Of a stretch of 64,000 nt of DNA, positions 5,288-63,948 are shown piece by piece. Position 1 is the stretch's first letter. Every line of letters starts with the position of its first letter. Origin of the DNA: Vicinamibacterales bacterium (GTDB taxonomy: Bacteria > Acidobacteriota > Vicinamibacteria > Vicinamibacterales > JAMQPK01); the NCBI GenBank assembly GCA_963784045.1, contig CAWAPZ010000003.1, forward strand, positions 174,143 through 238,142, in the 5' to 3' direction. Made by a program: the position numbers and the translations under genes. Below the pieces are notes generated by a model that worked only from the letters and a program-made list of their open reading frames with translations, was not told the DNA's origin and ran no database searches.

Positions 5288-8254
5288 ATGCCCCAATCAC
5301 CGGTCGCGACAACGATCAGAGGCGCCACCGACATCGTCGTTCGCGGTGCGCGCACCCACAATTTAAAGAACATCGACCTCGCGCTGCCGCTGGGCCAGCT
5401 GATTATCGTCACCGGCGTGAGCGGCTCGGGAAAGTCATCGCTCGCCTTCGATACCATTTACGCCGAGGGTCAGCGCCGCTACGTCAGCTCGCTGTCGGCC
5501 TACGCGCGGCAGTTCCTCGAACGGATGGAAAAGCCGGACGTCGATCGCATCGAAGGCATTTGCCCGGCGATCGCCATTCGTCAGAAGAACAGCATCCGCA
5601 ATCCGCGTTCGACCGTCGGCACGACCACGGAGATACACGACTATCTCCGGTTGCTCTTCGCCAGAGTCGGCCGGACGCTCTGCCGCCAGTGCGGCCAGGA
5701 GGTCGTACGCGACACGGCCGAAGTCGTCGCACGCCATCTTGGAAGCCTGGCAGGCGGTACCCGGCTGCTCATCGGCTTCGACATGCCCGTGATGGATCCC
5801 GGGGGTGTCCATGAGGGTACTGACGCCGAACCTGAGGAGGAGGATCCCGAATCTGCAGGGACTAGGGACTTGGGATTGGGGATGAGGAATACCGCTCCCA
5901 CGCAGGCTTCGCTGACATTCACGCTCAACGAGCTTCGCAGGAAAGGGTTTCACCGGCTCTACGTCAACGGACGAACGGTGATGGTCGACGACATCAGCCC
6001 GGCCGAGCTGCGCGATCAGTCGACGCTGAAAGTGATCGTCGACCGCATCAAGCTCGAAGGCGATATGCGCGGACGGCTGACCGATTCGGTCGAGCTGGCG
6101 TACCGCGAAGCCGGCGGGACGGCGTTCGCCATCGAAGATCCAGCGGGCTCGCCCGCCGAGGCGCCCCGCGCGAAGGCGGATGCGAAGACGCACGTGTTCA
6201 GCGAGCGGTTCGAGTGTCAGAACTGCAATCTCACCTACGAGGCGCCGCAGCCGCGTCTCTTCTCGTTCAACAACCCCTTCGGAGCGTGCCAGACCTGTCA
6301 CGGGTTCGGCAACATTATCGAGCTCGACCTCGACCTGGTCGTGCCCGATCCATCCAAATCGATCGCGCAAGGTGCGATTGAGCCGTGGACGAAGACGCAC
6401 TATCGCGCCCAACTGGCCGAGCTCAAGCGAGCCGCCAGGCCGGCGGGCGTGTCGATGGACATTCCCTGGCGGGAGCTGAACGACGAAGAGAAGCGCTTCA
6501 TCGTCGAGGGCGACGGGAAAGATTACGATGGCATTCGCGGCTTCTTTCGGTGGCTCGAGCGCAAGAAATACAAAGTCCACGTTCGCGTCTTCCTGAGCCG
6601 GTACCGAGGGTATCTCACGTGCCCTGATTGCGGTGGCGCGCGGTTGCGGCGCGAGGCGCGGGACGTGAAAGTCGGCGGCCGCACGATCGATCAGGTGTCC
6701 TCCGATACTGTGCGCGAGGCGCAGCAATTTCTCGAGGCATTGCGGCTCACGGAGAAAGAAGCGGCGATTGGCGAGAAAGTACTGAAGGAAATTCAGAAGC
6801 GGCTCAAGTTTCTCAGCGACGTGGGCCTGGACTACCTGACGCTCGACCGCCTGTCGTCGACGCTGTCTGGAGGAGAATCGCAGCGGATCAATCTGGCCAC
6901 GTCGCTCGGCTCGTCGCTCGTGGATACCTTATATGTACTCGACGAGCCGTCGATCGGCCTGCACTCGCGAGACAATCTGCGCCTCATCAACATCCTTCGC
7001 CAGCTGCGCGATCAGGGAAATACCGTGCTCGTCGTCGAACACGATGAAGACATGATTCGCGTCGGCGACACGATCGTCGATCTCGGCCTCGGCGCCGGCG
7101 AGCAGGGCGGCCGGGTGGTGTTCGCGGGAACGCTCGCGAACCTTCTGCAGGATCAGCGATCGCTGACCGCTAAATACCTCCGCGGCGATCTTGCGATTCC
7201 GGTGCCGTCGACGCGGCGGCGCGGAAGCGGGCAGAAGATCCGGCTGCTTGGCGCGACCGAGCATAACCTGAAGAACGTCGACGTCGAGATCCCGCTGAAC
7301 ACGCTGACGTGCATCACCGGCGTCAGCGGATCGGGCAAGTCGACGCTTGTCCACAACGTGCTGTATTCCGCGGTCAAACGCGCAAAGGGCGGGTCGGAGA
7401 AGCGCGTCGGAGCGTTCCGCAAGCTCGAAGGCGCCGAGTTCGTCAGCGACGTGGTGCTCGTCGATCAGACGCCGATCGGCCGGACGCCGCGATCGAATCC
7501 GGTGACGTACTTGAAGGCGTTCGATCCAATCCGCGAGATTTTCGCCGCCACGAAGGACGCCAAATCGCGCGGTCTGACGGCGAGCCATTTTTCCTTCAAC
7601 GTGCCCGGCGGACGCTGCGAGGCATGCCAGGGCGAAGGGGAAGTACGCGTCGAGATGCAGTTTCTGGCGGACGTGTTTGTGCCGTGCGATCAGTGCGACG
7701 GCCGGCGCTTCAAGCCGCAGGTGCTGGAAGTGAAATATCGCGCCAAGAACGTCAACCAGGTACTGGACCTCACCGTTCGGGAAGCGTTGACGTTCTTCAG
7801 CACGTCGCCAAAGGTGCTGCGCCGCCTGCAAGTACTCGACGAAATCGGGCTGGGCTACCTGCGGCTGGGGCAGCCCGCAACGACGCTGTCGGGCGGCGAG
7901 GCGCAGCGCATCAAGATTGCGTCTCATCTATCGTCGAGATCCGGCGACCGGATTCTCTACGTGCTCGACGAGCCAACAACGGGTCTGCACTTCGATGACA
8001 TCGCGAAGCTGCTCACGGCATTCAAGAAGCTCATCGAAGCCGGACACACGCTGGTGGTCATTGAGCACAACCTCGACGTGCTGAAGACGGCCGACTACAT
8101 CATTGATCTCGGGCCGGAGGGAGGCCATGAAGGGGGCAAGGTCGTCGCGACCGGTACGCCGGAGCAGATCGCCAAAGCCCCAGGCTCTCACACGGGCGAG
8201 TTTCTCGCGCCCGTTCTCGCCGTGGGACGGTCTCACGCCTATGCGCTTGAATAA
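5288..8254 (+). CDS. uvrA: Excinuclease ABC subunit A
   Basis: 988 aa. Two ABC modules (GVSGSGKSSLAFDT, GVSGSGKSTLV), LSGGE signatures, and Cys4 zinc modules (CQNC..CQTCHG, CPDCGG, CEACQGEG..CDQCDG). Confidence 0.95.
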   Translation: MPQSPVATTIRGATDIVVRGARTHNLKNIDLALPLGQLIIVTGVSGSGKSSLAFDTIYAEGQRRYVSSLSAYARQFLERMEKPDVDRIEGICPAIAIRQKNSIRNPRSTVGTTTEIHDYLRLLFARVGRTLCRQCGQEVVRDTAEVVARHLGSLAGGTRLLIGFDMPVMDPGGVHEGTDAEPEEEDPESAGTRDLGLGMRNTAPTQASLTFTLNELRRKGFHRLYVNGRTVMVDDISPAELRDQSTLKVIVDRIKLEGDMRGRLTDSVELAYREAGGTAFAIEDPAGSPAEAPRAKADAKTHVFSERFECQNCNLTYEAPQPRLFSFNNPFGACQTCHGFGNIIELDLDLVVPDPSKSIAQGAIEPWTKTHYRAQLAELKRAARPAGVSMDIPWRELNDEEKRFIVEGDGKDYDGIRGFFRWLERKKYKVHVRVFLSRYRGYLTCPDCGGARLRREARDVKVGGRTIDQVSSDTVREAQQFLEALRLTEKEAAIGEKVLKEIQKRLKFLSDVGLDYLTLDRLSSTLSGGESQRINLATSLGSSLVDTLYVLDEPSIGLHSRDNLRLINILRQLRDQGNTVLVVEHDEDMIRVGDTIVDLGLGAGEQGGRVVFAGTLANLLQDQRSLTAKYLRGDLAIPVPSTRRRGSGQKIRLLGATEHNLKNVDVEIPLNTLTCITGVSGSGKSTLVHNVLYSAVKRAKGGSEKRVGAFRKLEGAEFVSDVVLVDQTPIGRTPRSNPVTYLKAFDPIREIFAATKDAKSRGLTASHFSFNVPGGRCEACQGEGEVRVEMQFLADVFVPCDQCDGRRFKPQVLEVKYRAKNVNQVLDLTVREALTFFSTSPKVLRRLQVLDEIGLGYLRLGQPATTLSGGEAQRIKIASHLSSRSGDRILYVLDEPTTGLHFDDIAKLLTAFKKLIEAGHTLVVIEHNLDVLKTADYIIDLGPEGGHEGGKVVATGTPEQIAKAPGSHTGEFLAPVLAVGRSHAYALE
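5858..5890. repeat. 7-bp tandem array inside uvrA: GGGACTA GGGACTT GGGATTG GGGATGA GGAAT
   Basis: Read directly. Period 7. Four G-runs of at least 3 with 3-4 nt loops on the mRNA strand. Encodes TRDLGLGMRN. Confidence 0.85.
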
Positions 8255-8260
8255 AACACA

Positions 8261-8290
8261 GGGACTAGGGATTCGCGATTGGGGATTCGC
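8261..8290. repeat. 7-bp tandem array: GGGACTA GGGATTC GCGATTG GGGATTC
   Basis: Read directly. Lies in the uvrA / HEAT-gene spacer. Confidence 0.8.
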
Positions 8291-8297
8291 ACGGGCG

Positions 8298-9464
8298 ATG
8301 GCGAACGCTGCCGTGTGCGTACCGGTGATGTACGTCGTGCTGGGCTTCAGCCCAGCCGTGATCGCACAGCAGTACACCTTCGAGGAGGTCGCCGCCGGTC
8401 TGAAGCATCAGGATGCCGGTATTCGGCTCAGGACGATTCAGATACTGAAGGACGCCGACTACGCGGAAGCCACCGCTCCGATCGGCACCGCGCTCACCGA
8501 CGTAGACGATCGCGTCCAGCTCGCGGCCATAGACGCCGAACGATCCCTGTTTACGACCCGCGTGGTTCCGCGCAAGAAGAAAGTCGCCCTGATCGTGGAA
8601 GTCAGAACCGTAGCGGGCGGGGACGCTGCCGCGACAGGACAGCTCGCGCTGAAGGCGCGGAGAGTGCCTCCGGAGTTGTTGTCGGGTCTTGCCGTCGCGC
8701 TTCGTGACAACAACGCTCACGTTCGAGCCGAAGCCCTCAGCCTCGCTGCGCTCCTGGGGCCGGTTAGCTGCGCACCAGATGTCCAGCGTGCTTCCGATTC
8801 GAGCGCGTGTGACGGCATCGGCAATGGCCTGATCGACGGCATCAACTCGCGCGATCCGGTGCTGCGCCGAGCTGCGATGGAGGCAATCGGACAAGTACGC
8901 TACGCGAATGCGGTTCAGGCCCTGTCGGATCAGCTGAGCTACCACCAAAAGGGTCCCGACGCCCTGGCAGCCCTCGAGGGGCTGTCGGCGATCGGACATG
9001 CGACCTCCGTGTCGATTTTCGAGAATCAGTTGAAGAGCTCGAACGCCGACATGCGGCGGCTTGCCGTCGCCGGGTTGGCGCGCGCCGGATATCGCGAGGC
9101 GCTCGGGACAATCCAGGACATGGGACAGACGGAACACAACGACGGCGTATTGCTGGCGATGCACTACGCGAACGTCAAGCTCGGTGCTATTGACGCGAGC
9201 CTGCAGCAGCTCGTGGTATCCCTGGGCATTCCAGCGCTCCGCCCGCTGGCGTTGGCATACCTGCTGGACCTGTCGACGTCGCACGCTCAAGGCCTGGCGG
9301 CCTCGCTCACGAATCCCAGCGCGGACATCCGGCGCCTGGTCGCCGACATTCTCGGGTTCTCGCGAAACGCCAACGTGATTATCCAGCTCGGGGCGGCGGC
9401 ACAAGAGTCCGATCCCGATGTCGCCGGCGCCGCACAGCAGGCGATCGCGCGGCTCCATCTGTAG
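8298..9464 (+). CDS. HEAT/PBS-lyase-like repeat protein with an N-terminal signal-like hydrophobic segment
   Basis: Repeated roughly 30-aa units of the D..VR..A..AL type. ATG at 8298 gives MANAAVCVPVMYVVLGFSPAVIAQQ. An alternative ATG at 8241 would overlap the uvrA stop and translate a heptamer array. Confidence 0.65.
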   Translation: MANAAVCVPVMYVVLGFSPAVIAQQYTFEEVAAGLKHQDAGIRLRTIQILKDADYAEATAPIGTALTDVDDRVQLAAIDAERSLFTTRVVPRKKKVALIVEVRTVAGGDAAATGQLALKARRVPPELLSGLAVALRDNNAHVRAEALSLAALLGPVSCAPDVQRASDSSACDGIGNGLIDGINSRDPVLRRAAMEAIGQVRYANAVQALSDQLSYHQKGPDALAALEGLSAIGHATSVSIFENQLKSSNADMRRLAVAGLARAGYREALGTIQDMGQTEHNDGVLLAMHYANVKLGAIDASLQQLVVSLGIPALRPLALAYLLDLSTSHAQGLAASLTNPSADIRRLVADILGFSRNANVIIQLGAAAQESDPDVAGAAQQAIARLHL

Positions 9465-10093: not shown

Positions 10094-11250
<1,157 letters not shown>

Positions 11251-11877: not shown

Positions 11878-12476
11878 TGGACGTCCCGCTCCGCCAGCCC
11901 GTCCACGGTTGGATCGAAGTGATCACCGGCAGCATGTTCAGCGGAAAAAGCGAGGAGCTTATTCGCCGGCTTCGCCGAGCGCAGATCGCGCGGCAGCGGG
12001 TGCAGATCTTCAAGCCGGCCTTCGACAACCGGTTCGCGGGCTCGGACATCGTCTCGCACAGCGAGATGCGCATACAAGGCGTCAACGTCGGCAGCTCGGC
12101 GGAACTGCTGAGGCTGGTCAACGACGACACCGAGGTGGTCGGCATCGACGAAGCGCAGTTTTTCGACAAGGAGTTGCCGGCCGCCTGCACGCAGCTTGCA
12201 GGCAGCGGCAAACGCGTCGTCGTGGCGGGCCTCGATACCGATTACCTCGGCCGCCCGTTCGAGCCGATGCCGGTCATGATGGCGATTGCCGAATATGTGA
12301 CAAAGACGCATGCCATCTGCATGGTCTGCGGCAATCCTGCGAGCCACACGCAGCGCCTCGTCGTCAGCGATGAGCGGCTTCTGCTCGGCGCGACGGGCAC
12401 TTACGAGGCTCGGTGTCGGAAGTGTTTTGATCCCACGCTGGCATCGGCGGGAAGAGAGATTGAAAGTGAAAAGTAG
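11877..12476 (+). CDS. tdk: Thymidine kinase
   Basis: P-loop [11 protein letters not shown] and a C-terminal zinc-binding pair (CMVCG..., CRKC). The start overlaps the efp stop. Confidence 0.92.
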
Positions 12477-12524
12477 AAAGTGAAAAGTAGAGAGTAGAAA
12501 GTCTAGAGTCCAAATTCCAAAGTC
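12455..12524. repeat. 7-bp tandem array, about 10 units: GAAAGTG AAAAGTA GAAAGTG AAAAGTA GAGAGTA GAAAGTC TAGAGTC CAAATTC CAAAGTC
   Basis: Read directly. Spans the last codons and stop of tdk and ends 5 nt before ATG 12530. Confidence 0.9.
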
Positions 12525-12529
12525 GAGTC

Positions 12530-13114
12530 ATGAGCACCCAGTGGACCCCGCAACTCCTTCTTTTGCTGGGCGTCGGGTTTCTCGTCGCCAATGTGCGAGT
12601 CGGGGTTGACGGGCTGAGGTTTCTTCGGCGTCGGTCGTCGGCGCTGCTGATTTGGCGCGGGCCCAAACCGCGGTACTACGGGCTGCAGCTTGCGCTCGGC
12701 GTGGTGCTGGGCGCGCTGCTGATTTACCACATCGTCAACGTCATGCGTTCCGCACCGGAAATCCGCGGACGCTATGCACCTCAGGTGTTCGGCATCGGCA
12801 TGATGTTCGTGTACTACGGTTATGTGGTTCCGTTGAGCCGGCGGATTGGCCGAGGCTTTTACGCCGACGGTATCTGGTCCGAGACCGGCTTCGTCCCGTA
12901 CTGGAAAATCGGCGCTGTTTCGTGGCGGGAAGGGGAAGAGGTCGCCCTGGTCATCGTGTCCCGGCTGCGCAACCTGGCCCGAAGACTGATCGTGCCGGGG
13001 GTCCACTACGGCGCCGCTCGCCGCCTGCTGCGGGAAAAAATAGCCGCCCACGATATACAGTTGTTGCATACCGGGCTGGAGTTGGGGGCCCACGACGAGA
13101 TCGATGATGCGTAA
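12530..13114 (+). CDS. Hypothetical membrane protein (about 3 TM segments plus a soluble C-terminal domain)
   Basis: 194-aa ORF with hydrophobic helices and good third-position GC. No family recognised. Confidence 0.55.
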   Translation: MSTQWTPQLLLLLGVGFLVANVRVGVDGLRFLRRRSSALLIWRGPKPRYYGLQLALGVVLGALLIYHIVNVMRSAPEIRGRYAPQVFGIGMMFVYYGYVVPLSRRIGRGFYADGIWSETGFVPYWKIGAVSWREGEEVALVIVSRLRNLARRLIVPGVHYGAARRLLREKIAAHDIQLLHTGLELGAHDEIDDA

Positions 13115-13144: not shown

Positions 13145-13186
13145 CGGACCAACGGTCAACGGTAGACGGTAAACTTAAAACGGCAT
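13145..13186. repeat. 7-bp tandem array: ACGGTCA ACGGTAG ACGGTAA ACTTAAA ACGGCAT
   Basis: Read directly. Lies upstream of ku. Confidence 0.75.
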
Positions 13187-14065: not shown

Positions 14066-14086
14066 AAACGAAAAACGAAGAACGAA
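14066..14086. repeat. 7-bp tandem array, 3 units: AAACGAA AAACGAA GAACGAA
   Basis: Starts immediately after the ku stop. AACGAAT (14081-14087) pairs with ATTCGTT (14101-14107). Confidence 0.7.
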
Positions 14087-14119
14087 TTGCGGTTTTCGCT
14101 ATTCGTTATCATGTTCTCC

Positions 14120-19412: not shown

Positions 19413-20251
19413 ACGAGTTGCCTCCTTCATCCTCCGACTTCGAGTCCGCGCCGGACGCCTACTCGGTGAAGCTCGATTCCTTCGAAGGCCCCCTCGATCT
19501 CTTGATTCACCTGATCAAGAAGAACGAGGTGAACATCTACGACATCCCTATCGCCCTCATCACCCGGCAGTATCTCGAGTACATCGAGATGATGAAGGAG
19601 CTGAATCTCGATACGGTCGGCGAGTTCCTGGTGATGGCGGCGACGCTGATTCACATCAAGTCGAAGATGCTCCTGCCGCGGCCGGAATCGGCCCAGGAAG
19701 GCGCGCCCGAGGAGGATCCGCGCGATGCGCTGGTGCGCCGGCTCCTGGAACACCAGAAGTTCAAAGCCGCCGCGGAGCTGCTCCACGAGCGCGCCGTGTT
19801 GCGCGGCGCGCAATGGATTCGTCCGGACGGGCGCATCGCCGAGATTGCCGGCGACGAGTACGCCTACGAGCCGGAGGTCGAAGTCGATCTCTTCAGCCTG
19901 CTCGCGGCGTTCCGCGGCGTCCTCGAGCGAGCCAAGCAGCGGCCGAAAATGCTGCTGCCGCCCGAGGAAGTGCCAGTCGAGGTCCGGATCGATCAGCTGC
20001 TTGCGATGCTCTCCGAAACCGAAGCGTGCGGCTTCGAGGATCTGTTTGCGAAGGATGACTCGCGCGGTGGAATGATCGTGACATTTCTCGCGCTGCTCGA
20101 GATGATCCGCCTGAAATTGATACGTGTCTTTCAGACGATGGCATTCGGACCGATTCGGGTCTATAAGAGAGCGCGGCCGGTTGACGCACCGGTGCCGATT
20201 GGCGATCCTGAGGCAGTTAAAAACGAAAAACGAAAAGCGGAAAACGAATAA
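19409..20251 (+). CDS. scpA: Segregation and condensation protein A
   Basis: FEGPLDLLIHLIKKNEVNIYDIPIA is the typical ScpA N-terminus. Followed by scpB. Confidence 0.9.
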   Translation: MNELPPSSSDFESAPDAYSVKLDSFEGPLDLLIHLIKKNEVNIYDIPIALITRQYLEYIEMMKELNLDTVGEFLVMAATLIHIKSKMLLPRPESAQEGAPEEDPRDALVRRLLEHQKFKAAAELLHERAVLRGAQWIRPDGRIAEIAGDEYAYEPEVEVDLFSLLAAFRGVLERAKQRPKMLLPPEEVPVEVRIDQLLAMLSETEACGFEDLFAKDDSRGGMIVTFLALLEMIRLKLIRVFQTMAFGPIRVYKRARPVDAPVPIGDPEAVKNEKRKAENE

Positions 20252-20270
20252 CGAACAGCGAAAACGAACC
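20219..20270. repeat. 7-bp tandem array, about 7 units of AAAACGA type
   Basis: CGA/GCG recurs at 20224, 20231, 20238, 20245, 20252, 20259 and 20266. Covers the scpA C-terminal codons and stop. Confidence 0.9.
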
Positions 20271-20312
20271 GATTCTAGATTCCAGATTCCCGATTCCAGA
20301 TTCCAGAGTCAA
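20271..20312. repeat. 7-bp tandem array: GATTCTA GATTCCA GATTCCC GATTCCA GATTCCA GAGTCAA
   Basis: Read directly. Abuts the AAAACGA array. Lies upstream of scpB. Confidence 0.92.
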
Positions 20313-22366: not shown

Positions 22367-22387
22367 TGGAATCTTGAATCTAACGTA
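22367..22387. repeat. Short 7-bp array: TGGAATC TTGAATC TAACGTA
   Basis: Same unit family as 36980-37035. Lies between the SGNH hydrolase stop and the rluB start. Confidence 0.55.
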
Positions 22388-28212: not shown

Positions 28213-28255
28213 GATCCCCAATCCCCAATCCCGAATCCCTGATCCCCAATCCCGT
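28213..28255. repeat. 7-bp tandem array, C-rich on the + strand: GATCCCC AATCCCC AATCCCG AATCCCT GATCCCC AATCCCG
   Basis: Read directly. Fills the ihfB/HIT spacer up to ATG 28257. Confidence 0.92.
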
Positions 28256-34990: not shown

Positions 34991-35067
34991 CTGAACCTGG
35001 AATCTAGAAACTAGAATTTGGGAACTAGAATCTAGAAACTGAAATCTGGGAACGGAATCCAAAAACA
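34991..35067. repeat. 7-bp tandem array, 11 units: CTGAACC TGGAATC TAGAAAC TAGAATT TGGGAAC TAGAATC TAGAAAC TGAAATC TGGGAAC GGAATCC AAAAACA
   Basis: Read directly. Begins 1 nt after the DUF4159 gene stop. Confidence 0.92.
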
Positions 35068-35300
35068 GGCAACTCGATCCTCGCTACCGGCTACAAGCTA
35101 CCAGCTGGTGTACACTATAAGGACCGCTCAGAAGAGCGCGTGGAAAGGCCGCTAAGCCATTGCCTGAGGAGTCAATCTGCCTTTGCGGTGAAGCCGCTAC
35201 GGCGCGATGGGCGGAAGGGCGCGAACTGAATAGGCCGCGGCCGGGAGGTGCTCAAACGCATGGCTAAATCTACGGTGATTCGCAAGTAGCACGTCTTCAG

Positions 35301-36979: not shown

Positions 36980-36983
<4 letters not shown>

Positions 36984-37035
36984 ACCTGGAATCTAGAATC
37001 TAGAATCTAGAATCTGGAATCTAAAATCTAGAACT
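36980..37035. repeat. 7-bp tandem array, 8 units: CTGAACC TGGAATC TAGAATC x3 TGGAATC TAAAATC TAGAACT
   Basis: Read directly. Occupies the whole spacer between the two mutase subunit genes. Confidence 0.95.
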
Positions 37036-41009: not shown

Positions 41010-41786
41010 ATGTCACGCGTCGCCCCGCGCACGCGGGGCATGGGCCGGTGCATCCATTGGCTCGAGTCGACCGGGTCGACCAATGACGTGGCCGCACGCC
41101 TCGCCGAATCCGGCGCCGAGCAAGGCACGATCGTCGTCGCGGACATGCAGACCGCCGGTCGCGGTCGACATGGGCGCGTATGGTTTTCGCCGCCGGGAGC
41201 CGGATTGTACGCGTCGATCATCATTCGTCCCGCGCACCCGACCGCGGGCGAAGAGCGGCCGGCCGCGCTGTTGACGCTCGCCGCTGGAGTGGCGATCGCC
41301 GAGGCCGTTCGTGGGCTGACAGGGCTGCCTGCGAAGATCAAATGGCCGAACGACGTCGTTGTCGGCCCGCGGAAGCTCGCCGGAATTTTGGCCGATGCGG
41401 CGATGCAGGGAGGCATCCTCCAGCACATCGTACTTGGCTTCGGTGTCAACCTGCGATCCGCCGCGTATCCGCCCGAGCTCACCGCGCGGACGACTTCGAT
41501 TGAAGCAGAAACGAATCGGCCGGCCGAGCGCGGATTGATGCTTGCCGAAATCCTTGCGGCGCTGGCGGATCGCTGCGCAGATCTCCAGGCCGGAAGGTTC
41601 GATGCTATTCTGAGCGCCTGGCGACAGAATGCGGCGCGCGTCCCTGGCGCGCGAGTCGAATGGGACTCGCCCCATGGCGTCGTGTGCGGCTGTGCGGAAG
41701 ATATCGATCGAGACGGTGCTTTGCTGGTACGCGTCGGGGACAAGTTAGAGCGCGTGGTCGCTGGAGAAGTGCGGTGGATCGACTGA
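41010..41786 (+). CDS. birA: Biotin--[acetyl-CoA-carboxylase] ligase (group I, no DNA-binding domain)
   Basis: STGSTND...QTAGRGRHGRVW...KWPNDV. Alternative TTG start at 40944. Confidence 0.85.
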   Translation: MSRVAPRTRGMGRCIHWLESTGSTNDVAARLAESGAEQGTIVVADMQTAGRGRHGRVWFSPPGAGLYASIIIRPAHPTAGEERPAALLTLAAGVAIAEAVRGLTGLPAKIKWPNDVVVGPRKLAGILADAAMQGGILQHIVLGFGVNLRSAAYPPELTARTTSIEAETNRPAERGLMLAEILAALADRCADLQAGRFDAILSAWRQNAARVPGARVEWDSPHGVVCGCAEDIDRDGALLVRVGDKLERVVAGEVRWID

Positions 41787-41811
41787 GAACTGAGAGCTGA
41801 GAGCAAAACGC
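41784..41811. repeat. 7-bp tandem array: TGAGAAC TGAGAGC TGAGAGC AAAACGC
   Basis: Runs from the birA stop codon to the coaX ATG. Confidence 0.8.
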
Positions 41812-42741: not shown

Positions 42742-43323
42742 TTGAAGATCGCGTGCCAGGGCATCGACGCCTACTTCGTGAGGTACTACGCCAAGGGGGT
42801 TCGGCGCCGGCCGGTACAGATTGATTTCTGCGAGAACGACATCCTTGATGCCTTCGATGCCTGGCGCCGCGCCGTCGGCGTGCGCCTTCCTGGCGCAGAA
42901 GAGATGCCGGCAGAGAACCAAAGCAGGCGGCGCAAGCGAAGTCTGCCCGAACATCTGGATCGTGTGTGCGAGCGCGTTACGGCGCGGCGTGCCGGCATGA
43001 CGCCGCCTCCTCCCGAGTTTGATGGGGTGCTGGACATGATCGCTCGGGAAGCGGCGGCCTTTCGCGATCAGCCGGGACCGTTGCGTGGAGAAACGCGGGA
43101 ACGGATTATGGCGCGCCTCGCCGAGTTGGATCGCCTGATGCTCGACGCCGCGCGCGCGCAGGCGGATCCGGCGGCCGTTCAGGCGATGCGTATTGAAGCC
43201 TCGACGCAGCTGCTGCCGTTCCGCGAACGCATGGCGGCCGAGACGTACGGGCGCGCGATCGAAGCGGCGGTCGACCGTCTGTTGCGCGAGCGCGAACATC
43301 TGCCCGTTGTGGCGTTTGGCTAG
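42742..43323 (+). CDS. Conserved hypothetical protein. The minimal TTG-start model is given here; coding signal extends upstream to about 42637, with a candidate ATG at 42615 in another frame (see findings).
   Basis: High third-position GC continues upstream of 42742 in the same frame (REIEAYLCRKNDGHLIRIVGPSFERV...) without any ATG, GTG or TTG. Confidence 0.55.
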   Translation: MKIACQGIDAYFVRYYAKGVRRRPVQIDFCENDILDAFDAWRRAVGVRLPGAEEMPAENQSRRRKRSLPEHLDRVCERVTARRAGMTPPPPEFDGVLDMIAREAAAFRDQPGPLRGETRERIMARLAELDRLMLDAARAQADPAAVQAMRIEASTQLLPFRERMAAETYGRAIEAAVDRLLREREHLPVVAFG

Positions 43324-43433
43324 CGCATTTTCGATTTCGCTGTAGTTGATGTAGGCCGGGTCCTTCGGACCCGGCAGCGGAGGCGGGTCGGCACGACCCG
43401 CTCTACGTACTACAGCGAAATCGAAAATGCTCT
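43322..43433. repeat. Structured element bounded by inverted repeats (MITE-like or ncRNA-like)
   Basis: A 22-nt perfect inverted repeat (43325-43346 versus 43409-43430) encloses two perfect GC hairpins: GCCGGGTCC-TTC-GGACCCGGC and GCGGGTCG-GCA-CGACCCGC. Confidence 0.85.
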
Positions 43434-43442
43434 AGGTGGTAG

Positions 43443-43486
43443 GGGAGAGATGAGAGCGGAGAGCCGAGACTAAGCGCCGAGAGCTA
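43443..43486. repeat. 7-bp periodic GAGAG-type array
   Basis: GAGAG/GAGAC at 43445, 43452, 43459, 43466 and 43479. Abuts the methyltransferase stop. Confidence 0.65.
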
Positions 43487-45471: not shown

Positions 45472-47537
45472 TACATTCTCGGTGGTACGGCAATGCCCAT
45501 GAGATCAAGCGCGCGCGTCAGCTGCGCACGCACGTACGCCACGCCGGCGGCGCGCCAGAGCCGGGCGGCCGCCTGCTCCTCGTTGAGGATCGGATACCGA
45601 TGATAAAAGCCGTTGAACATCTGTGCCAGCCCGAACGCGTATTTTGCGAGCACCGAGAACTCCAGCGTCCGAACGACTTGCTCGACGATTTCATCGAGGC
45701 GCGAGGCTTCGAGGATGAGCGCCCACAAATCATGGCTGCCTCCCTCGCCAGTCAGCTCGGCAGCGTCGATCTCGCCAAGCGTCGCAAACACCGCGGCTTC
45801 GTCGACCTTGTCGCGGTCGCGCAGCTTGGCCAAAATGTTCTGGGCCCGAACGACAGCATACTGTAGATACGGGCCGCTTTCACCCTCGAACGCGAGGGCT
45901 TCGTCTATATCGAAGGCAATGATCTTCGTGCGCGAATACTTCACCATGAAATAGCGCACCGCGGCGACCGCGATCATGTCGGCGATGCGCCGATGCTCCC
46001 CGGTGGCGAGCTCTGAATTGCGCCTGGCCACTTCGGTTTCGGCGCGCGCGATGAGGGTGTCCAGCAGGTCATCGGCCTTCACGCCCTGTCCCTTGCGACC
46101 CGACACATCGACGAACCCGCGCTTGTCATCGGCCGCATCGGCGGCGAGGTATCCGAGCGCTCGCGCTGCAGCGTTCGAGAGTGCCACCATTTCGTACGAG
46201 AAGTGCGTTGCCCGCTCGGCTTGCTCGGCGTAGCCAAGAGTCCGAAGCGCCTGTTTCAGGAGCTTCTGAAGATACGATTGCCGCACATCGATGACGTTGT
46301 AGGTCGCGTCGGCGCGGCCGAATGGGGGATGCGAAGCATCCCCGGGTGTCTGCGAAGTCGACCACAGGACTTCGCCGTTTGTCCGGGTTCCGAACCGGCA
46401 ATAGTAGAAGTCGCGCCCCAACAGCCCGAGCTTCCAGAACTGATAGGCGATGTCCTTGCCGACGTACGTAACGGTGCCGTTCGATCGGACAATAACCTTT
46501 TCGCGTTCGCTTTCTCCGCTTTCCCTAATCCCTAATCCCTCATCCCCAATCCCTAGTCCAGCATCTCCAATCCCTAATCCCACATCCCCAATCCCTTCAG
46601 AGGCAGGCTCGTCCTCCTCGATCTTCATGACCCAGCAACCAGCCAGTTTGCCTTCAGTCTGGAAATACACCGCGCCTTTCTCTTTCAAGATCTCGAAGGC
46701 CCGCGCCCAGAACTGCAGCCGCAGAATGTGGCCTTCCCACGTCAGAAGGTCGTAATCCACGTTCAGCCGCGCCATCGTCTTCAGGTGGCATCGGACGATG
46801 CGTTCGGCGATGAACGCGGCAATGTCTGAGGTCGCCGTGCCGCCGTGCTCGATATCGTGCAACGTCGCCGTGCGAATCTTGAGGCGCTCTTTGTCTTCGT
46901 CGTACCACTGCGTAACGCGCGCGTAGAGATCCCAGCAGTAATAGTCGAACCGCGTCGAGTCCGCGATGGCGCGGATGTCCTCGATCGTCTTGTCTTCGAG
47001 CTCGCGAAATCCGACGACGACGTCGGCCACCTGGACGCCGGTGTCGTCGATGTAGTTCTGCACCTCGACGGGAACGCCTCGGAAGCGCTGCACGCGTACG
47101 AGCGTGTCGCCCAGCGCGGCATTGCGAATATGGCCGATGTGCGCCGCCTTGTTCGGGTTGATGGCCGTGTGCTCGACGATGGCTTTTTGGGGTCTGACCC
47201 CCGTACCGGTACGGGGGTCAGACCCCGATGGCACGACTTTCTTGACGAAGGCGATGCGATCTAAATAGATGTTCAGGTAGCCGTTCGGCGCGGCCTCGAC
47301 GCGAACGACGCCGTCCAGAGGCCCGAGGGCCGCAGCGAGCTCCTGTGCGATGACGCGCGGCGCTTTGCGCAGGCGGCGCGCAAGCTCGAAGGCCACGGGC
47401 GTTGCGAGATCGCCGAGCTCGCGCTTCGGCGGATATTCGATCGGCAGTTGTGGCAGTGCGTCAGGCGGCACCTGATAAAGGTGCTGAAGCGTCGTCGATA
47501 ACCGCTCTCGCAACTGTTCGTGAATTGGAAGAATCAT
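45471..47537 (-). CDS. argS: Arginine--tRNA ligase, carrying two unusual in-frame inserts
   Basis: 688 aa. HIGH-type motif NPNKAAHIGH; class I core; C-terminal anticodon-binding domain ending in M. Confidence 0.93.
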   Translation of the reverse strand: MILPIHEQLRERLSTTLQHLYQVPPDALPQLPIEYPPKRELGDLATPVAFELARRLRKAPRVIAQELAAALGPLDGVVRVEAAPNGYLNIYLDRIAFVKKVVPSGSDPRTGTGVRPQKAIVEHTAINPNKAAHIGHIRNAALGDTLVRVQRFRGVPVEVQNYIDDTGVQVADVVVGFRELEDKTIEDIRAIADSTRFDYYCWDLYARVTQWYDEDKERLKIRTATLHDIEHGGTATSDIAAFIAERIVRCHLKTMARLNVDYDLLTWEGHILRLQFWARAFEILKEKGAVYFQTEGKLAGCWVMKIEEDEPASEGIGDVGLGIGDAGLGIGDEGLGIRESGESEREKVIVRSNGTVTYVGKDIAYQFWKLGLLGRDFYYCRFGTRTNGEVLWSTSQTPGDASHPPFGRADATYNVIDVRQSYLQKLLKQALRTLGYAEQAERATHFSYEMVALSNAAARALGYLAADAADDKRGFVDVSGRKGQGVKADDLLDTLIARAETEVARRNSELATGEHRRIADMIAVAAVRYFMVKYSRTKIIAFDIDEALAFEGESGPYLQYAVVRAQNILAKLRDRDKVDEAAVFATLGEIDAAELTGEGGSHDLWALILEASRLDEIVEQVVRTLEFSVLAKYAFGLAQMFNGFYHRYPILNEEQAAARLWRAAGVAYVRAQLTRALDLMGIAVPPRM
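46523..46599. repeat. 7-bp tandem array inside argS, 11 units: CCCTAAT CCCTAAT CCCTCAT CCCCAAT CCCTAGT CCAGCAT CTCCAAT CCCTAAT CCCACAT CCCCAAT CCCTTCA (+ strand)
   Basis: Read directly. The G-rich strand is the argS mRNA. Encodes GIGDVGL GIGDAGL GIGDEGL GIRE. Confidence 0.95.
47189..47226. repeat. Perfect 38-nt palindrome (19+19) inside argS
   Basis: GGGGTCTGACCCCCGTACC / GGTACGGGGGTCAGACCCC. The arms are exact reverse complements with no spacer. Confidence 0.95.
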
Positions 47538-48785: not shown

Positions 48786-50390
48786 ATGAGGTTCCGGTTC
48801 CAATTCCTTTTCCTGTTCTGGTTGCTGATTCCGTGTTCCGGGTTCGCGGCCGCGCAGCCAAACGAGCGCGTGCTCGTCATTCCCTTTGAAAACCCCACGC
48901 GAGAGCCGCGGATCCTTTGGATCGGCGAGGCATCGGCGGTGTTGCTCGCCGACGATCTAAACGCCTTCGGTAAGCGCGCGTACACGCGGGAGGAACGTCT
49001 CGATGCCTTCCAGCGCCTGCAGGTGCCTCCCGTCGCCACATTGAGTCACGCCACGGTCATCCGGCTGGGACAAGTCGTGGGCGCGACGCATGTCGTCATC
49101 GGCTCGTTCCGGTTGAACGGTGGAATGATTTCGGTGCGCACCCAGAATATCCGGCTCGACACCGGCCGGATGGAGCACGAATTCGTCGAAGCCGGACCGC
49201 TCGAAGATCTGTTTGCCATTTTCGGGCGCGTCAGCCGGCGCCTCGCGGGCCAGCCTGTGTCAGACGCACCGCCGCCGCGGCCGGCGCTGCCGGTGTTCGA
49301 GAACTACATCAAAGGGCTCATCGCGACGTCGACGGCGGCGAAAATCGGCTATCTCGAAGCGGCTATCAAGGTCGATCCCGGATTCGATCGTGCGCGCCTG
49401 GCGCTGTGGAACGTGCAGTATGACGACGCGAACGGACAGGCCGCCCTGGTCGCCGCGGCGGCGGTGGCGGAGACCTCTCCGATGTACGCGCCTGCGCGGT
49501 TCAGCGTGGCGCTGTCGCTGATCCAGCTCAATCGCCTGGACGATGCGTTTGCCACGCTGAGAACGCTCGCCGATCGTGCGCCGTCGGCGACATTGATGAA
49601 CAACATCGGCGTCATCCAGTTGCGGCGGCCCGTCACGCCGGAGACCGGCCGCGCGACGTATTACTTCAATCAGGCATTGAAGCTCGACCAAGACGATCAG
49701 GACTACTACTTCAATCTCGGGTACGCCTACTGGGCCGAGAAGGATGCGGCGTCCGCGACCTTCTGGTTGCGCGAGGCTGTCCGCCGCGATCCGGCGGATG
49801 GAGAAGCGCATGCCGTGCTCGCCGCCGCGCTGCAGGCAACCGGCGCGGCCGCCGAGGCAGCGCGCGAGCGCGAGCTCGCTACACAGTTGTCCTCGACGTA
49901 CGCCGAGTGGGCGAAGAGACCGGCTACTCCGGGCGGCGAGACTATCCCACGCAGGCTCGAGCGGCTCAAGCTATCGTTGGAGGTCTCCACGCTCCACAGA
50001 ATCGACAACGCGATAGCGATTACGGGCCAGCGCGAGCAAAAAGAGCTTGCGGCCTTTCATCTCGATCGCGGGCGGAGGCTGTTCGAGCAGGGCAGCAACA
50101 CCGAAGCCGTCACCGAGCTGTCTCGCGCGATCTATCTGTCGCCGTACGAGGCCGCGGCGCACCTGCTGCTCGGTCGCATTCATCTGAGAACGGGCGAGAC
50201 TGCGGCGGCCATCGGCGCGTTCAAGATCGCGCTGTGGAGCCAGGAATCGGTCGAGGGGCGCATCGCGCTGGCCCAGGCCCATCTCCAGATGAAGGATACG
50301 GCCGGCGCCCGCTCGGCGCTCGAGCGCGCGCTGTCGCTCGATCCGAATTCCTCCGAAGCCAGGGAGTTACTCGGTAAACTGGCACCGTGA
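48786..50390 (+). CDS. TPR-repeat protein with signal peptide
   Basis: Signal MRFRFQFLFLFWLLIPCSGFAAAQ. Multiple TPR-like A..Y..A....P pairs. Confidence 0.75.
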   Translation: MRFRFQFLFLFWLLIPCSGFAAAQPNERVLVIPFENPTREPRILWIGEASAVLLADDLNAFGKRAYTREERLDAFQRLQVPPVATLSHATVIRLGQVVGATHVVIGSFRLNGGMISVRTQNIRLDTGRMEHEFVEAGPLEDLFAIFGRVSRRLAGQPVSDAPPPRPALPVFENYIKGLIATSTAAKIGYLEAAIKVDPGFDRARLALWNVQYDDANGQAALVAAAAVAETSPMYAPARFSVALSLIQLNRLDDAFATLRTLADRAPSATLMNNIGVIQLRRPVTPETGRATYYFNQALKLDQDDQDYYFNLGYAYWAEKDAASATFWLREAVRRDPADGEAHAVLAAALQATGAAAEAARERELATQLSSTYAEWAKRPATPGGETIPRRLERLKLSLEVSTLHRIDNAIAITGQREQKELAAFHLDRGRRLFEQGSNTEAVTELSRAIYLSPYEAAAHLLLGRIHLRTGETAAAIGAFKIALWSQESVEGRIALAQAHLQMKDTAGARSALERALSLDPNSSEARELLGKLAP

Positions 50391-59545: not shown

Positions 59546-59555
59546 AGACAGAAAC

Positions 59556-61844: not shown

Positions 61845-61862
61845 TGCGTCACTATTCTAACT

Positions 61863-61897
61863 GGCTTTAGGCTCTAGGCTTTAGGCTTTGGCTAAAG
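61863..61897. repeat. 7-bp tandem array: GGCTTTA GGCTCTA GGCTTTA GGCTTTG GCTAAAG
   Basis: Read directly. Lies in the divergent mrcA/dnaK spacer. Confidence 0.85.
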
Positions 61898-61929
61898 CCG
61901 CACAGTCTACGCCCAGAGCCGGCTTGTGC

Positions 61930-61958
61930 TTTACACAGAAGCACTCACATTTCATAAT
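61930..61958 (+). promoter_or_regulatory. Candidate dnaK promoter overlapped by an imperfect inverted repeat
   Basis: TTTACA, 17-nt spacer, CATAAT. The inverted repeat GCTTGTGCTT-N7-AAGCACTCAC spans the -35 box and spacer. Confidence 0.3.
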
Positions 61959-62009
61959 CAAAGAAGCCTAAAGGTTTGACGCGGCATTCACTCGTACGAG
62001 GGATTTCAT

Positions 62010-63914
62010 ATGAGCAAAATCATCGGCATCGATCTCGGCACTACCAATTCAGTCGTCGCGGTCATGGAGGGCGGGGAGCCAACCGTCATCACGAATCCAG
62101 AAGGCGGACGCCTGACGCCGTCCGTCGTGGCGTTCACGAAAGCGGGGGAGCGCCTCGTCGGCCAGGTCGCGAAGCGGCAGGCCGTGACGAATCCGGAGAA
62201 CACCGTCTTTTCGATCAAGCGCTTCATGGGACGCAAGTTCGATGAGGTGAACGAAGAAATGAAGATGGTGCCGTTTCGCGTGATACGCCCGGCCAACGGC
62301 GACGTGCGGATCGAAGCCGGTGCCAAGGAGTCCTCGCCTCCTGAGATCTCCGCGATGATTCTGCAGAAGCTGAAACAGGCGGCTGAGGAGTATCTCGGCC
62401 AGCCGGTGACCAAGGCCGTGATCACCGTCCCTGCGTACTTCAACGACGCCCAGCGCCAGGCCACGAAGGATGCGGGGCAGATCGCCGGCCTCGAAGTGAT
62501 GCGTATCGTCAACGAGCCCACGGCCGCGGCGCTCGCCTACGGGCTCGACAAGAAGAAGGACGAGACGATTGCCGTGTATGACTTCGGGGGCGGCACGTTC
62601 GACATCTCGATTCTCGAGGTCGGTGAAGGAGTCGTCGAGGTCAAGTCGACCAACGGGGACACGCACTTGGGAGGAGACAACCTCGACCAGAAAGTCATCG
62701 ACTGGATCGCGGCTGAGTTCAAGAAGAGCGACGGCATCGATCTCACGAAAGATCGCATGGCCCTTCAGCGCCTCAAGGAAGCCGCCGAGAAGGCGAAGAT
62801 GGAGCTCTCGTCGGTGATGGAAACCGACATCAGCCTGCCGTTCATCACGGCCGATGCTAGCGGCCCAAAGCACCTGGCGATGAAGCTGACGCGCGCGAGA
62901 TTCGAGCAGCTCGTCGAAGATCTGCTTCAGCGCACGGTAGGCCCGACCAGGCAGGCCCTCAAGGATGCCGGCGTCGAACCGGGCAAGATCGACGAGGTCG
63001 TTCTCGTCGGCGGGTCGACGCGCATTCCACGCGTGCAGGCGATCGTCAAAGAGCTGTTCGGGAAGGAGCCGCACAAAGGCGTGAACCCCGACGAAGTGGT
63101 CGCCGTGGGCGCGGCGATTCAGGCGGGCGTGCTCGCGGGCGAAGTGAAGGATCTGCTGCTCCTGGACGTGACGCCGCTGTCGCTCGGGATCGAGACGCTT
63201 GGAGGCGTGATGACGACCCTGATTCCCCGCAACACGACGATTCCCACACGCAAGAGCGAAGTCTTCTCGACGGCGGCCGACAACCAGACCAGCGTCGAAG
63301 TGCACGTGCTGCAGGGCGAGCGGCCGCTCGCGCGCGACAACCGCACGCTCGGCAGGTTCCATCTCATCGGTCTTCCACCGGCGCCGCGCGGGATCCCGCA
63401 GGTCGAAGTGACGTTCGACATCGACGCGAACGGCATCGTCAACGTCCAGGCGAAGGATCTGGGCACCGGCAAGGAGCAGAAGATTACGATCACTTCTTCG
63501 AGCGGCCTCAGCAAAGACGAGGTCGACAAGATGATGCGGGAGGCCGAATCGCACGCCGACGAAGACAAGAAGCGGCGGGATGAAATCGAGGCGCGCAACC
63601 GCGCCGACCAGACGGTCTATGCCGCCGAGCGAATGTTGAAGGACACCGGCGACAAGCTTTCGAGCGCCGACCGTACGGCCGTCGAATCCGCGATCGAAGA
63701 AGCCAAGAAGGCCAACGCGGGCACGGACATCTCGGCGATCAACGCCGCGATGGAGGCGTTGAACAAAGCGCAGCACGCCGCGGCTGAGAATCTTTACAAG
63801 CAGGCCGCCCAGACGCCCGGCGGGACCGCGCCATCCCCCGAAGACGGCGCGTCGCAACCCAACGGCCAGAAAGAAGGGGACGTGATCGACGCGGAAGTGG
63901 TGGATGACAAATAG
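62010..63914 (+). CDS. dnaK: Molecular chaperone DnaK (Hsp70)
   Basis: [26 protein letters not shown] and the full-length collinear Hsp70. Confidence 0.97.
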
Positions 63915-63948
63915 GGATTAGGGATTGGGATTAGGGATTAGGGATTTG
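63914..63948. repeat. Roughly 7-bp tandem array: GGGATTA GGGATT GGGATTA GGGATTA GGGATTT
   Basis: Five GGG runs separated by 3-4 nt. Fills the dnaK/dnaJ spacer and overlaps the dnaJ TTG. Confidence 0.92.

Follow-up and report, generated by a model that had tools for sequence, protein, structure and literature searches.

Why are the gene junctions of a soil acidobacterium studded with tandem arrays of seven nucleotides, and do such arrays serve the genes between which they lie? The question is raised by a stretch of 64,000 nucleotides from a Vicinamibacterales bacterium (Acidobacteriota; contig CAWAPZ010000003.1, positions 174,143 to 238,142), which is referred to as the window. An earlier reading of the letters without database searches, here called the sequence-only reading, had listed at least 16 degenerate heptanucleotide arrays in it and had compared them with the short tandemly repeated repetitive (STRR) sequences of cyanobacteria. 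Cyanobacteria have been known to carry heptanucleotide arrays since 1990, and reports of 2007-2015 added Xanthomonas, Burkholderia and others. To our knowledge neither a function nor a reason for the unit of seven nucleotides has been established for them. In this study we find that the window arrays are probably heptanucleotide long simple sequence repeats (SSRs) of the STRR/GGGNATC class and mainly a mutational, near-neutral by-product instead of conserved cis-regulatory motifs. We base this reading on their fast turnover among relatives, their divergence at the synonymous rate, the lack of a strand bias, a use of spacer classes that follows the background and their restriction to tolerated sites.

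The period-7 signal

The window was compared with 40 shuffled windows for Tandem Repeats Finder (TRF) and with block shuffles preserving local composition for the autocorrelation. TRF reported 18 period-7 arrays at a score of at least 30, where 1.23 were expected, and 9 at a score of at least 40, where 0.03 were expected. No other period was enriched in the window except the multiples 14 and 21. Sliding autocorrelation gave a similar picture with 8 period-7 segments (0.06 expected), 7 segments each for periods 14 and 21, and none or one for each of the remaining periods from 2 to 22. The excess is therefore genuine and limited to period 7, and the observation is statistically solid. Such an enrichment over other periods had been proposed as a check of the arrays, and it was seen in the window.

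When printed in register, all 16 listed sites displayed the heptamer periodicity, although the site at 22367-22387 is marginal. TRF detected 14 of the 16 at a score of at least 30 and missed this one and 8261-8290; the latter was confirmed by L081, a close relative in which four clean GGGATTN units stand in the same place. The units are degenerate, with a match of 70-93% within arrays (TRF), and the low-scoring arrays at 5858, 13145, 14066, 41784 and 43443 are credible mainly through their context and through the relatives. The unit families could be recovered as listed earlier, with at least seven of them in the 64 kb to which these counts of families and loci refer; GGGATTN occupies five loci, TRGAATC four and AAAACGA three. 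Moreover, arrays were found that had been overlooked, namely GCTACNN at 35083-35106 and AAAACGA-type arms at 43320-43346 and 43409-43435. The arrays are indeed AT-richer islands, since the array-bearing segments have a GC content of 0.30-0.62 compared to a window mean of 0.63; the average for the arrays is about 0.48 versus 0.63 for the genome. Their density amounts to about 250 per Mb over all families, and roughly a quarter of the spacers are occupied.

Position of the arrays

The arrays of the window are as follows.

5858..5890, + strand: GGGACTN/GGGATTN, 4.5 units, inside uvrA and in frame (aa 191-201, GTRDLGLGMRN); predicted G-quadruplex (G4)
8261..8290, + strand: GGGAYTN, 4 units, in the spacer from the uvrA stop at 8254 to the start of a HEAT-repeat gene at 8298
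12455..12524, + strand: GAAAGTN, 10 units, includes the tdk stop (12474-12476); 5 nt separate its end from the ATG at 12530
13145..13186, + strand: ACGGTNA, 6 units, between the stop of a hypothetical gene at 13114 and ku
14066..14112, + strand: AAACGAA, 3 units, with the inverted partner TTTTCGC TATTCGT (14090-14112); hairpin (z -2.3) that fills the spacer from the ku stop at 14065 to the panE start at 14120
20219..20270, + strand: AAAAACG, 7 units, codes for the final 10 residues of scpA and holds the stop codon (20249-20251)
20271..20312, + strand: GATTCCA, 6 units (reverse complement of the TRGAATC family), abuts the AAAAACG array; 17 nt before the scpB ATG at 20330
22367..22387, + strand: TGGAATC TTGAATC, two good units only, between convergent genes; marginal, without a TRF match
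28213..28255, + strand: AATCCCN, 6 units, C-rich on the sense strand, between the HU stop at 28198 and the ATG of a HIT-family gene at 28257
34991..35106, + strand: TRGAAHC, 11 units (34991-35067), then GCTACNN, 3.4 units (35083-35106); starts 1 nt past the DUF4159 stop
36980..37035, + strand: TRGAATC, 8 units, contains the stop (36981-36983) of the methylmalonyl-CoA mutase gene (mcm); z -4.0
41784..41811, + strand: CTGAGAG, 3-4 units, contains the birA stop and abuts the coaX ATG at 41812
43320..43435, + strand: inverted arms of 27 nt with AAAACGA-type units (43320-43346 and 43409-43435) that enclose two GC hairpins
43443..43486, + strand: SSGAGAG, 6 units, degenerate, adjoins the stop of a trmA-like gene (43484, minus strand)
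46523..46599, - strand: GGGATTN, 11 units (sense strand), inside argS and in frame (aa 313-339, GIGDVGLGIGDAGLGIGDEGLGI); super-period of 21 nt (7 aa)
61863..61897, + strand: GGCTTTA, 5 units, in the divergent spacer between PBP1 and dnaK; ends in the palindrome GGCTTTGGCTAAAGCC; z -2.6
63912..63948, + strand: (TA)GGGATT, 5 units, contains the dnaK stop (63912-63914); the frame downstream reads DLYELLGIAR

In 14 of the 16 listed cases the array lies outside the cores of coding sequences (CDS; p=1e-11). The earlier statement that arrays fill intergenic spacers holds for these 14, but the uvrA and argS arrays are translated in frame. Two unit families meet at 20219-20312, as had been described, where the AAAAACG array is followed by the GATTCCA array. 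The earlier remark that the arrays lie at stop codons and frequently extend to the following start was also confirmed. Five of them contain or overlap the upstream stop (tdk 12455, scpA 20219, mcm 36980, birA 41784 and dnaK 63914), and those of tdk and scpA encode the last residues of the protein. Relative to the stop, the arrays of co-directional spacers start at positions from -33 to +30 nt, and 6 of 9 end within 7 nt of the next start. The array at 63912-63948 probably supplies the TTG start of dnaJ (63946). The use of co-directional, convergent and other spacer classes by heptamer arrays matches the background of gene pairs (p=0.42).

The gene map was derived from Pfam scans and substitution phase. 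It begins with cysH, uvrA, the HEAT-repeat gene, a methylpurine glycosylase, an HtrA-like protease, efp, tdk, the hypothetical gene, ku and panE. The middle part comprises uvrC, an M50 peptidase, a class-I tRNA synthetase (W/Y), scpA, scpB, cmk, rpsA, HU, the HIT-family gene and DUF4159. These are followed by methylmalonyl-CoA mutase with its B12-binding subunit, whose ATG (37038) lies 2 nt after the end of the 36980 array, a second class-I tRNA synthetase, birA, coaX, the trmA-like gene, a C26 peptidase, argS, PBP1 and dnaK. Some initial gene calls had to be rejected. A minus-strand open reading frame (ORF) at 8265-9458 is spurious, as the substitution phase in comparison with L081 shows that the plus-strand frame 8298-9464 (ATG 8298) is coding; it encodes the HEAT-repeat protein. 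According to conserved alignments the longest-ORF starts of ku (13196) and panE (14087) are too far upstream. The alignments place the start of ku at 13208 (MAARATWKG), preceded by a conserved GGAAGG Shine-Dalgarno (SD) sequence, and that of panE at 14120 (ATGCGCTTTATTGTCC).

The arms at 43320-43435 are 96% complementary and occupy the convergent spacer between a hypothetical gene (42742-43323) and the trmA-like gene. This element may be a bidirectional terminator or another module of inverted arrays.

Turnover among relatives

For the comparison we used 93 related loci. Of these, 80 are the best genomic loci encoding relatives of the window ArgRS, and the others came from scanning metagenomes around uvrC; genes of the related loci were called crudely, on the basis of GC3. 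All 80 ArgRS-linked loci belong to Vicinamibacterales, Vicinamibacteria or Acidobacteriota metagenome-assembled genomes (MAGs), a few of which have obviously mislabelled titles, and the acidobacterial host that had been deduced from gene content was thereby borne out. Synteny is kept across these loci. The scan around uvrC yielded several more distant relatives as well as L081, a close relative with a 97% identical UvrC and about 89% DNA identity over 14 kb. The same arrays, with point changes, are present in L081, an independent metagenome contig, which means that they did not arise in assembly. Dozens of independent MAGs of this order, from short as well as long reads, contain similar arrays.

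In the alignment of the window with L081 the arrays are 80% identical, compared to 78% for third codon positions, 86% for other intergenic sequence, and 96% and 98% for codon positions 1 and 2. Gap columns make up 35% of the arrays and 0.5% of coding sequence. The arrays therefore carry substitutions at about the synonymous rate and the fastest indels of the alignment.

Presence/absence and unit-number differences, which the sequence-only reading had suggested looking for in orthologous spacers, were found between the related genomes. The spacer between mcm and the B12-binding subunit holds (TRGAATC)x8 in the window, 9-mers GGTCGCGTA together with AAACGGT heptamers in L002, (CAGAGCC)x10 in L005, TCNNCAG with an inverted partner in L014 and (GGGGGCA)x7 in L016. 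No array is present in L009 and L010, and the junction in L010 reads TAGATG. Similar results were obtained for the junction of birA and coaX, where the CTGAGAG family is found in the window and L008, unrelated heptamers in L002, L005 and L014, and a TGATG stop/start overlap without any spacer in L003, L004, L006 and L013. At the junction of scpA and scpB the AAAACGA array has about 7 units in the window, 4 in L081 and 5 in L082, and (GCTGRRA)x12 is found instead in L084 and L086. The neighbouring GATTCCA array with its 17 nt is missing from L081 and L082 and private to the window lineage; judged from this alignment, it is a recent insertion. The GAAAGTN array at the end of tdk is common to the window and L081 apart from a 12-nt indel, and L085 has a palindrome instead. 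The spacer of the ACGGTNA array carries an inverted GGTAGGT/ACCTACC pair in L085 and GGGGCTN in L093, and is without an array in L084 and L091. Taken together, the alignments indicate that the arrays turn over faster than gene order and gene sequence.

Besides these arrays, the spacers of L001, L003, L005, L006, L011, L014, L019 and L086 contain a dispersed palindrome resembling repetitive extragenic palindromic (REP) sequences, GTAGTGTCCGGCT(G/T)(A/C)AGCCGGACACTACGTAC, which in L086 is inserted within a heptamer array. A search of the window for this palindrome returned chance-level matches with 3 mismatches and no convincing copy.

Arrays inside proteins

The arrays of uvrA and argS are each read in the only open frame, as the other two frames hold stops, and both sit in segments that are missing from solved homologues. 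In alignments to solved structures, aa 309-347 of ArgS replace about 10 residues of 2zue, and aa 161-210 of UvrA, a lineage-specific loop insertion of 50 aa, replace about 15 residues of 2r6f. For UvrA the assignment to a loop is based on the frame analysis and this structure alignment.

The ArgS loop lies between the motifs CWVMxI and REKVIVRSNG and is hypervariable in 65 orthologues. Five close relatives have a single 21-nt block GGGATTGGGGATTCGGGATTA (GIGDSGLGI), and the window has about 3.5 blocks. The loop appears to have grown in frame-keeping steps of three units, that is 21 nt. In distant clades the same loop is built from the heptamers AACTCCC, AAATCCC and CAATCCC, which belong to the reverse-complement family and are read as PNSQ, PKSQ and PTPN. 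Since point mutation cannot flip the orientation of an array, the loop must have been colonised more than once. GGCTCCG, AAAGTTC and CGGATCC are further families at this site.

A second in-frame hot spot of argS was observed at nt ~310-370 (locus ~10307-10373), between the N-terminal domain and the catalytic core, in L005-L008 and L011; the window is without an array there. It contains GACGATC/TCGACGA heptamers with up to 9.6 copies or, in L011, an 8-mer in six copies. The predicted N-terminus of the gene at 48786-50390, MRFRFQFLFLFWLL, is encoded by a hexamer array (GGTTCC-like, 48790-48841) in the window, L008 and L011. At the orthologous site L001 and L013 have a heptamer array with the same core (GGTTCYG), so that the period, 6 or 7, differs between genomes at one site within the 5' end of a CDS.

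Tests of function

No constraint on orientation at the RNA level was seen in 31 heptamer arrays in co-directional spacers. G exceeds C in 17 and C exceeds G in 12, A exceeds T in 19 and T exceeds A in 12, and the sense strand is purine-rich in 18 of the 31.

Most arrays fold with z-scores between -0.7 and +1.2 relative to composition-matched shuffles. More stable than the shuffles are the TRGAATC arrays with their TCTAGA palindromes (z -4.0 and -1.7), the inverted pair between ku and panE (-2.3) and the array at 61863 (-2.6). A uniformly unstructured RNA is ruled out by these values. The earlier suggestion of unstructured standby sites is compatible with some arrays, but not with the TRGAATC arrays and the inverted pair. 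Within the GGCTTTA array we also observed a 10-nt perfect complement (CTTTAGGCTT at 61879-61888, AAGCCTAAAG at 61964-61973) to a site that precedes the dnaK ATG by about 36 nt, which could allow long-range pairing in the dnaK leader.

The sequence-only reading had assumed that the arrays replace the Shine-Dalgarno region, which we could not confirm. The mean pairing energy with the anti-SD was -3.6 kcal/mol for nine array-adjacent starts and -3.3 kcal/mol for 27 other starts (p = 0.71), the latter being unverified longest-ORF starts. The window as a whole is poor in SD sequences, array-adjacent starts do not differ from other starts, and array-less relatives have TGATG junctions without a spacer SD. 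Moreover, ku retains its conserved SD downstream of the ACGGTNA array. Few starts in the window have a recognisable SD, and at several junctions stop and start codons overlap; initiation led by an SD seems to be of little importance in this lineage.

For four of the five GGGATTN arrays, which hold four or more G3 tracts, the formation of quadruplexes is predicted, in the 28213 array on the antisense strand. The other families cannot form G4s. The scan of the whole window against Rfam gave no match at the gathering score, and a whole-window scan for tRNA and tmRNA genes found none. A phase-variation switch was ruled out by the position of the arrays (3' ends, junctions and in-frame loops), their degeneracy and their housekeeping neighbours. 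We also discarded the idea that the AAAAACG array of scpA acts as a slippery site for -1 frameshifting, because direct reading places A AAA AAC out of the required frame.

Comparison with known repeats

The description of the arrays as STRR-like heptanucleotide tandem repeats was supported. Like the cyanobacterial STRR sequences of Calothrix, Anabaena and Nostoc, they are heptanucleotide tandems of several unrelated families, dispersed and mostly intergenic, and the CCCCAAT/GGGGATT unit is common to both and present in the window. The other two classical STRR units are TTGGTCA and CAACAGT. TTGGTCA tandems are absent from the window, and CAACAGT has one near-match with 2 mismatches (CAACGGTCAACGGT), which is at chance level. 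In contrast to STRR, the arrays analyzed here reside in a GC-rich acidobacterial host, have more degenerate units and are accompanied by units of 8 and 9 nt in sister genomes. STRR as originally defined is restricted to heterocystous cyanobacteria, and a Vicinamibacterales host is outside that limit. Calling such arrays a hallmark of heterocystous cyanobacteria is too narrow, as heptamer arrays have been published for Xanthomonas, Burkholderia and actinobacteria, and surprise at finding them outside cyanobacteria is overstated.

As summarised in PMC4679880, Mrazek, Guo and Shah (2007) described heptanucleotide long simple sequence repeats (LSSRs) as the commonest class among units of 5-11 nt in scattered prokaryotes including Burkholderia, actinobacteria and Xanthomonas, and proposed a polymerase-footprint slippage model for LSSRs. 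In line with that summary, heptamers dominate here, are mostly non-coding and occur in what is for LSSRs a typical setting of large GC-rich genomes of non-pathogens. An excess of arrays, heptamer dominance, a mainly non-coding location and changes of unit number between species were all present in our analysis. Genome-specific switching among the periods 7, 8 and 9 within one order goes beyond the LSSR reports. In the literature searched we found no report of LSSR-rich genomes or heptamer arrays in Acidobacteriota.

Rehm et al. (2015; PMC4692102) reported GGGAATC arrays in GC-rich Xanthomonas, roughly 190 per genome, and GGGGA(C/T)T arrays in Nostoc, which are dispersed and mostly located between aligned ORFs. 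These arrays lie at most 50 bp from a stop or overlap it, are transcribed, partly intragenic and sometimes arranged as inverted pairs; (GGGATTG)3GGG and (GGGACTG)3GGG form G4s in vitro with K+ (PMC4692102). The window resembles this in its GGGATTN, GGGACTN and degenerate TRGAATC/GGGAATC units, the GC-rich host (as in Xanthomonas), the dispersal of arrays, their placement in co-directional spacers near or across a stop, intragenic copies, inverted pairs and G4-competent tracts. The agreement is close for the two most frequent families of the window. GGGATTN/GGGACTN arrays are located at 5858, 8261, 28213, 46523 and 63914, and GGGAATC occurs within the TRGAATC arrays. The published placement rule fits 8261 and 63914 (sense strand, at the stop) and 28213 (G-rich on the antisense strand, 1 nt upstream of an ORF). 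Unlike the arrays of Rehm et al., this is one of at least seven families, most others are without G4 potential, and the density is much higher. From their position in likely operons and within CDS, we infer that the window arrays are transcribed.

TAACTGA arrays upstream of start codons were described in marine Beggiatoaceae, some cyanobacteria and Bacteroidetes (MacGregor 2015, PMC4679880). As in our arrays, the heptamers stand directly before starts, their overlap with gene ends is limited by in-frame stops, and they are occasionally translated in the permissive orientation. In contrast to the one dominant unit in 2-6 copies, for which a link to an alternative RpoC was suggested, the window has many families and longer degenerate arrays. 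A similar placement next to start codons, with a speculative function, was reported for Nostoc heptamers (bioRxiv 10.1101/2022.06.06.494920). With the SSRs of contingency loci the arrays share a change of unit number by slippage. Contingency SSRs are near-perfect, have units of 1-5 (rarely 7) nt and are found in the 5' CDS or promoters of surface or host-interaction genes of host-adapted pathogens, whereas the degenerate arrays of the window occur at the 3' ends and junctions of housekeeping genes and leave the reading frame intact within CDS. Pairs of inverted arrays are present at 14066-14112 and 43320-43435 and are numerous in relatives; they form intergenic hairpins, often between convergent genes, and thus recall REP sequences and bacterial interspersed mosaic elements (BIME). 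However, their arms consist of tandem short units and not of a fixed palindrome; the true REP-like palindrome GTAGTGTCCGGCTNNAGCCGGACACTAC is separate and occurs in relatives only.

A probable mutational by-product and the points against it

If the arrays are mainly a near-neutral by-product, replication slippage or tandem duplication would create them and alter their length, the size of the unit being typical of the lineage (7 here, 8 or 9 in some sisters). Some would be seeded from local gene-end sequence and some copied between loci, as the shared sequences suggest. The comparisons show that they persist wherever they meet no constraint, namely in co-directional stop-to-start gaps of an SD-poor genome, in dispensable C-terminal tails and in lineage-specific surface loops. 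Inside a protein the reading frame survives only if an array changes by 21 nt (three units) at a time. The comparisons also show their decay by point mutation at about the synonymous rate together with a very high turnover by indels. Among the functions suggested earlier, selfish simple-sequence expansion fits the comparative data best. G-quadruplexes of GGGATTN arrays, hairpins of inverted pairs and the spacing of coupled cistrons are possible side effects that may be exploited locally. A mutation accumulation study of Acidobacterium capsulatum, which belongs to a different class of the phylum, reported an unusually high share of indels, 39% of which were in SSRs (PMC8717266).

Several observations weigh against this reading. 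A survey of the window and the ArgRS-linked loci (1.57 Mb; TRF arrays with at least 3 copies and a score of at least 40) revealed 89 period-7, 31 period-8, 32 period-9 and 6 period-6 arrays and almost none with periods of 5 or less or of 10 or more, and plain slippage leaves this sharp distribution at 7-9 nt unexplained. The preference for a period is genome-specific (Fisher p = 5e-4 and 1e-3): in the window nine heptamer arrays stand against no 8- or 9-mer, in L038 five 9-mers (GCACCYGAG) against no heptamer, and the 8-mer GGTGCGAC is predominant in L024, L032 and L062. Identical canonical units, which had to match exactly in this test, recur in 25 pairs versus 3.75 ± 1.9 expected from a composition-matched null (maximum 14 in 2000 trials). 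Among them are units shared by non-orthologous loci of different genomes, such as GAAAGTA between tdk and the hypothetical gene of the window and between ku and panE of L085, or GCTGAGA between birA and coaX of the window and between scpA and scpB of L084 and L086. The arrays at 34991 and 36980, which are 2 kb apart, have an identical first 23 nt TAATCTGAACCTGGAATCTAGAA that include 4 nt of flank. In the spacer between ku and panE an inverted array pair is present in the window, L081, L085 and L091, with three different unit families, and this kept architecture suggests structural selection or a templated fold-back mechanism. Finally, the array at the end of uvrA (8261) has exactly 4 units in both the window and L081, which differ by point changes only.

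The sharp genome-specific periods, the recurrence of units, the common 23-nt start and the inverted pairs suggest that arrays are copied from one another, through ectopic conversion or template switching, as well as being seeded locally. Local seeding is suggested by the unit AATCTAG of the 36980 array, since mcm of relatives ends in these 7 nt. Single-linkage clustering of units (at most 1 mismatch, any rotation or strand) was abandoned as too permissive because the null also fell into one cluster. Many of the 8- and 9-mer arrays are non-coding, since they contain stop codons, and several form inverted pairs; 8-mers are enriched between convergent genes (p = 0.0014). We also noted that the 8- and 9-mers of L024, L032, L062, L026, L038 and L045 have a common GGTGCG core (GGTGCGAC, GGGTGCGAA and GCACCYGAG) with a GC content of 0.61-0.65. 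Arrays with this core are often located directly past the argS stop and are frequently inverted pairs.

Other explanations

The arrays might instead be functional intercistronic spacers, AT-richer leaders that keep the downstream start accessible for SD-independent (S1-dependent) initiation or 70S re-initiation. Their anchoring at stops, the six of nine co-directional arrays that end so close to a start, their GC content of about 0.48 versus 0.63 and the SD-poor window would agree with this, as would the low folding energy at the junction of tdk and the hypothetical gene (-0.06 kcal/nt) and also at those of birA with coaX and dnaK with dnaJ; similar ideas were put forward for TAACTGA arrays and the start-adjacent heptamers of Nostoc. 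We nevertheless regard this explanation as doubtful, because the arrays fold no more weakly than matched shuffles, two families fold more strongly, and close relatives join the same gene pairs by a TGATG overlap without a spacer. Arrays are also found between convergent genes, in CDS loops and in both orientations, and they evolve at the synonymous rate. For the G-rich subset (GGGATTN/GGGACTN) an action via DNA or mRNA G-quadruplexes on transcription, translation or genome stability would be conceivable by analogy with the published arrays, given that four of five are predicted to form G4s, that (GGGATTG)3GGG and (GGGACTG)3GGG, though not these exact sequences, fold in vitro (PMC4692102) and that 8261, 63914 and 28213 follow the published placement rule. 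But most families (AAAACGA, GAAAGTN, TRGAATC, ACGGTNA, GGCTTTA and CTGAGAG) are without G-tracts, the window copy at 8261 has lost one of its tracts, and no G/C strand preference exists across loci. Moreover, G-rich arrays on the sense strand of two essential genes are located where a stable G4 should be harmful. A G4-based function is thus quite unlikely.

Several of the points that weigh against plain slippage would favour a dedicated, lineage-specific templated mechanism with a ruler of 7-9 nt, such as template switching, fold-back repair synthesis or an RNA- or DNA-templated polymerase. It could account for the sharp genome-specific periods, the units that recur across loci and genomes, the identical 23-nt start, the inverted-pair architecture that outlasts its units and the colonisation of the argS loop by one family in both orientations. 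However, the only insertion that could be dated showed no candidate enzyme, target-site duplication or terminal signature, one array at least seems to have been seeded locally, and recurrence could reflect ectopic conversion or composition bias, so that we hold a mechanism of this kind to be distinctly improbable. A bolder version, to which we give a similarly small credence, is that Vicinamibacterales carry a genetically encoded ruler (polymerase, repair or template-switching) that makes and disperses arrays of a genome-specific 7-, 8- or 9-nt unit. Such a ruler would seed arrays at gene ends and in tolerant loops and would re-copy favoured units between loci and into inverted pairs. Very unlikely, in our view, are multivalent binding platforms for a nucleoid protein or a single-stranded nucleic-acid-binding protein that covers about 7 nt, such as a cold-shock or S1-like OB-fold protein. 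CspB binds direct heptamer repeats with one protein per heptamer, as cited in PMC4679880, the Nostoc study (bioRxiv 10.1101/2022.06.06.494920) speculates on a heptamer-binding protein, and a strict period with a loose sequence would suit this analogy. Yet the families have unrelated units, none of which is conserved at orthologous sites, there is no strand bias, sister genomes use periods of 8 and 9 nt, and the arrays evolve at the neutral rate. Chance, assembly artefact or contamination has a negligible probability. A few arrays do score 30-37, a range in which shuffles yield about 1.2 matches per window, but the nine arrays at a score of at least 40 (0.03 expected), the L081 contig, the frame kept in two essential genes and the dozens of MAGs stand against it.

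Meaning for Vicinamibacterales

With the arrays read as near-neutral long SSRs, a known repeat class is now extended to a soil acidobacterial order, where it occurs at high density. Worth recording beyond this are the genome-specific unit length, the repeated in-frame colonisation of ArgRS and the inverted-pair spacers that outlast their units. The ArgRS surface loop has been colonised repeatedly, in both orientations and in 21-nt steps, which gave rise to GIGD/GLG or PNSQ/PKSQ peptide repeats. For annotation it is of importance that arrays can mislead gene callers on stops and starts and inflate the apparent variation of protein length in MAGs. Genome-specific units of 7, 8 or 9 nt within one order represent a natural experiment on what sets unit length. 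If an encoded ruler did exist, comparative genomics within the order could find its determinant and explain why bacterial long SSRs are heptameric.

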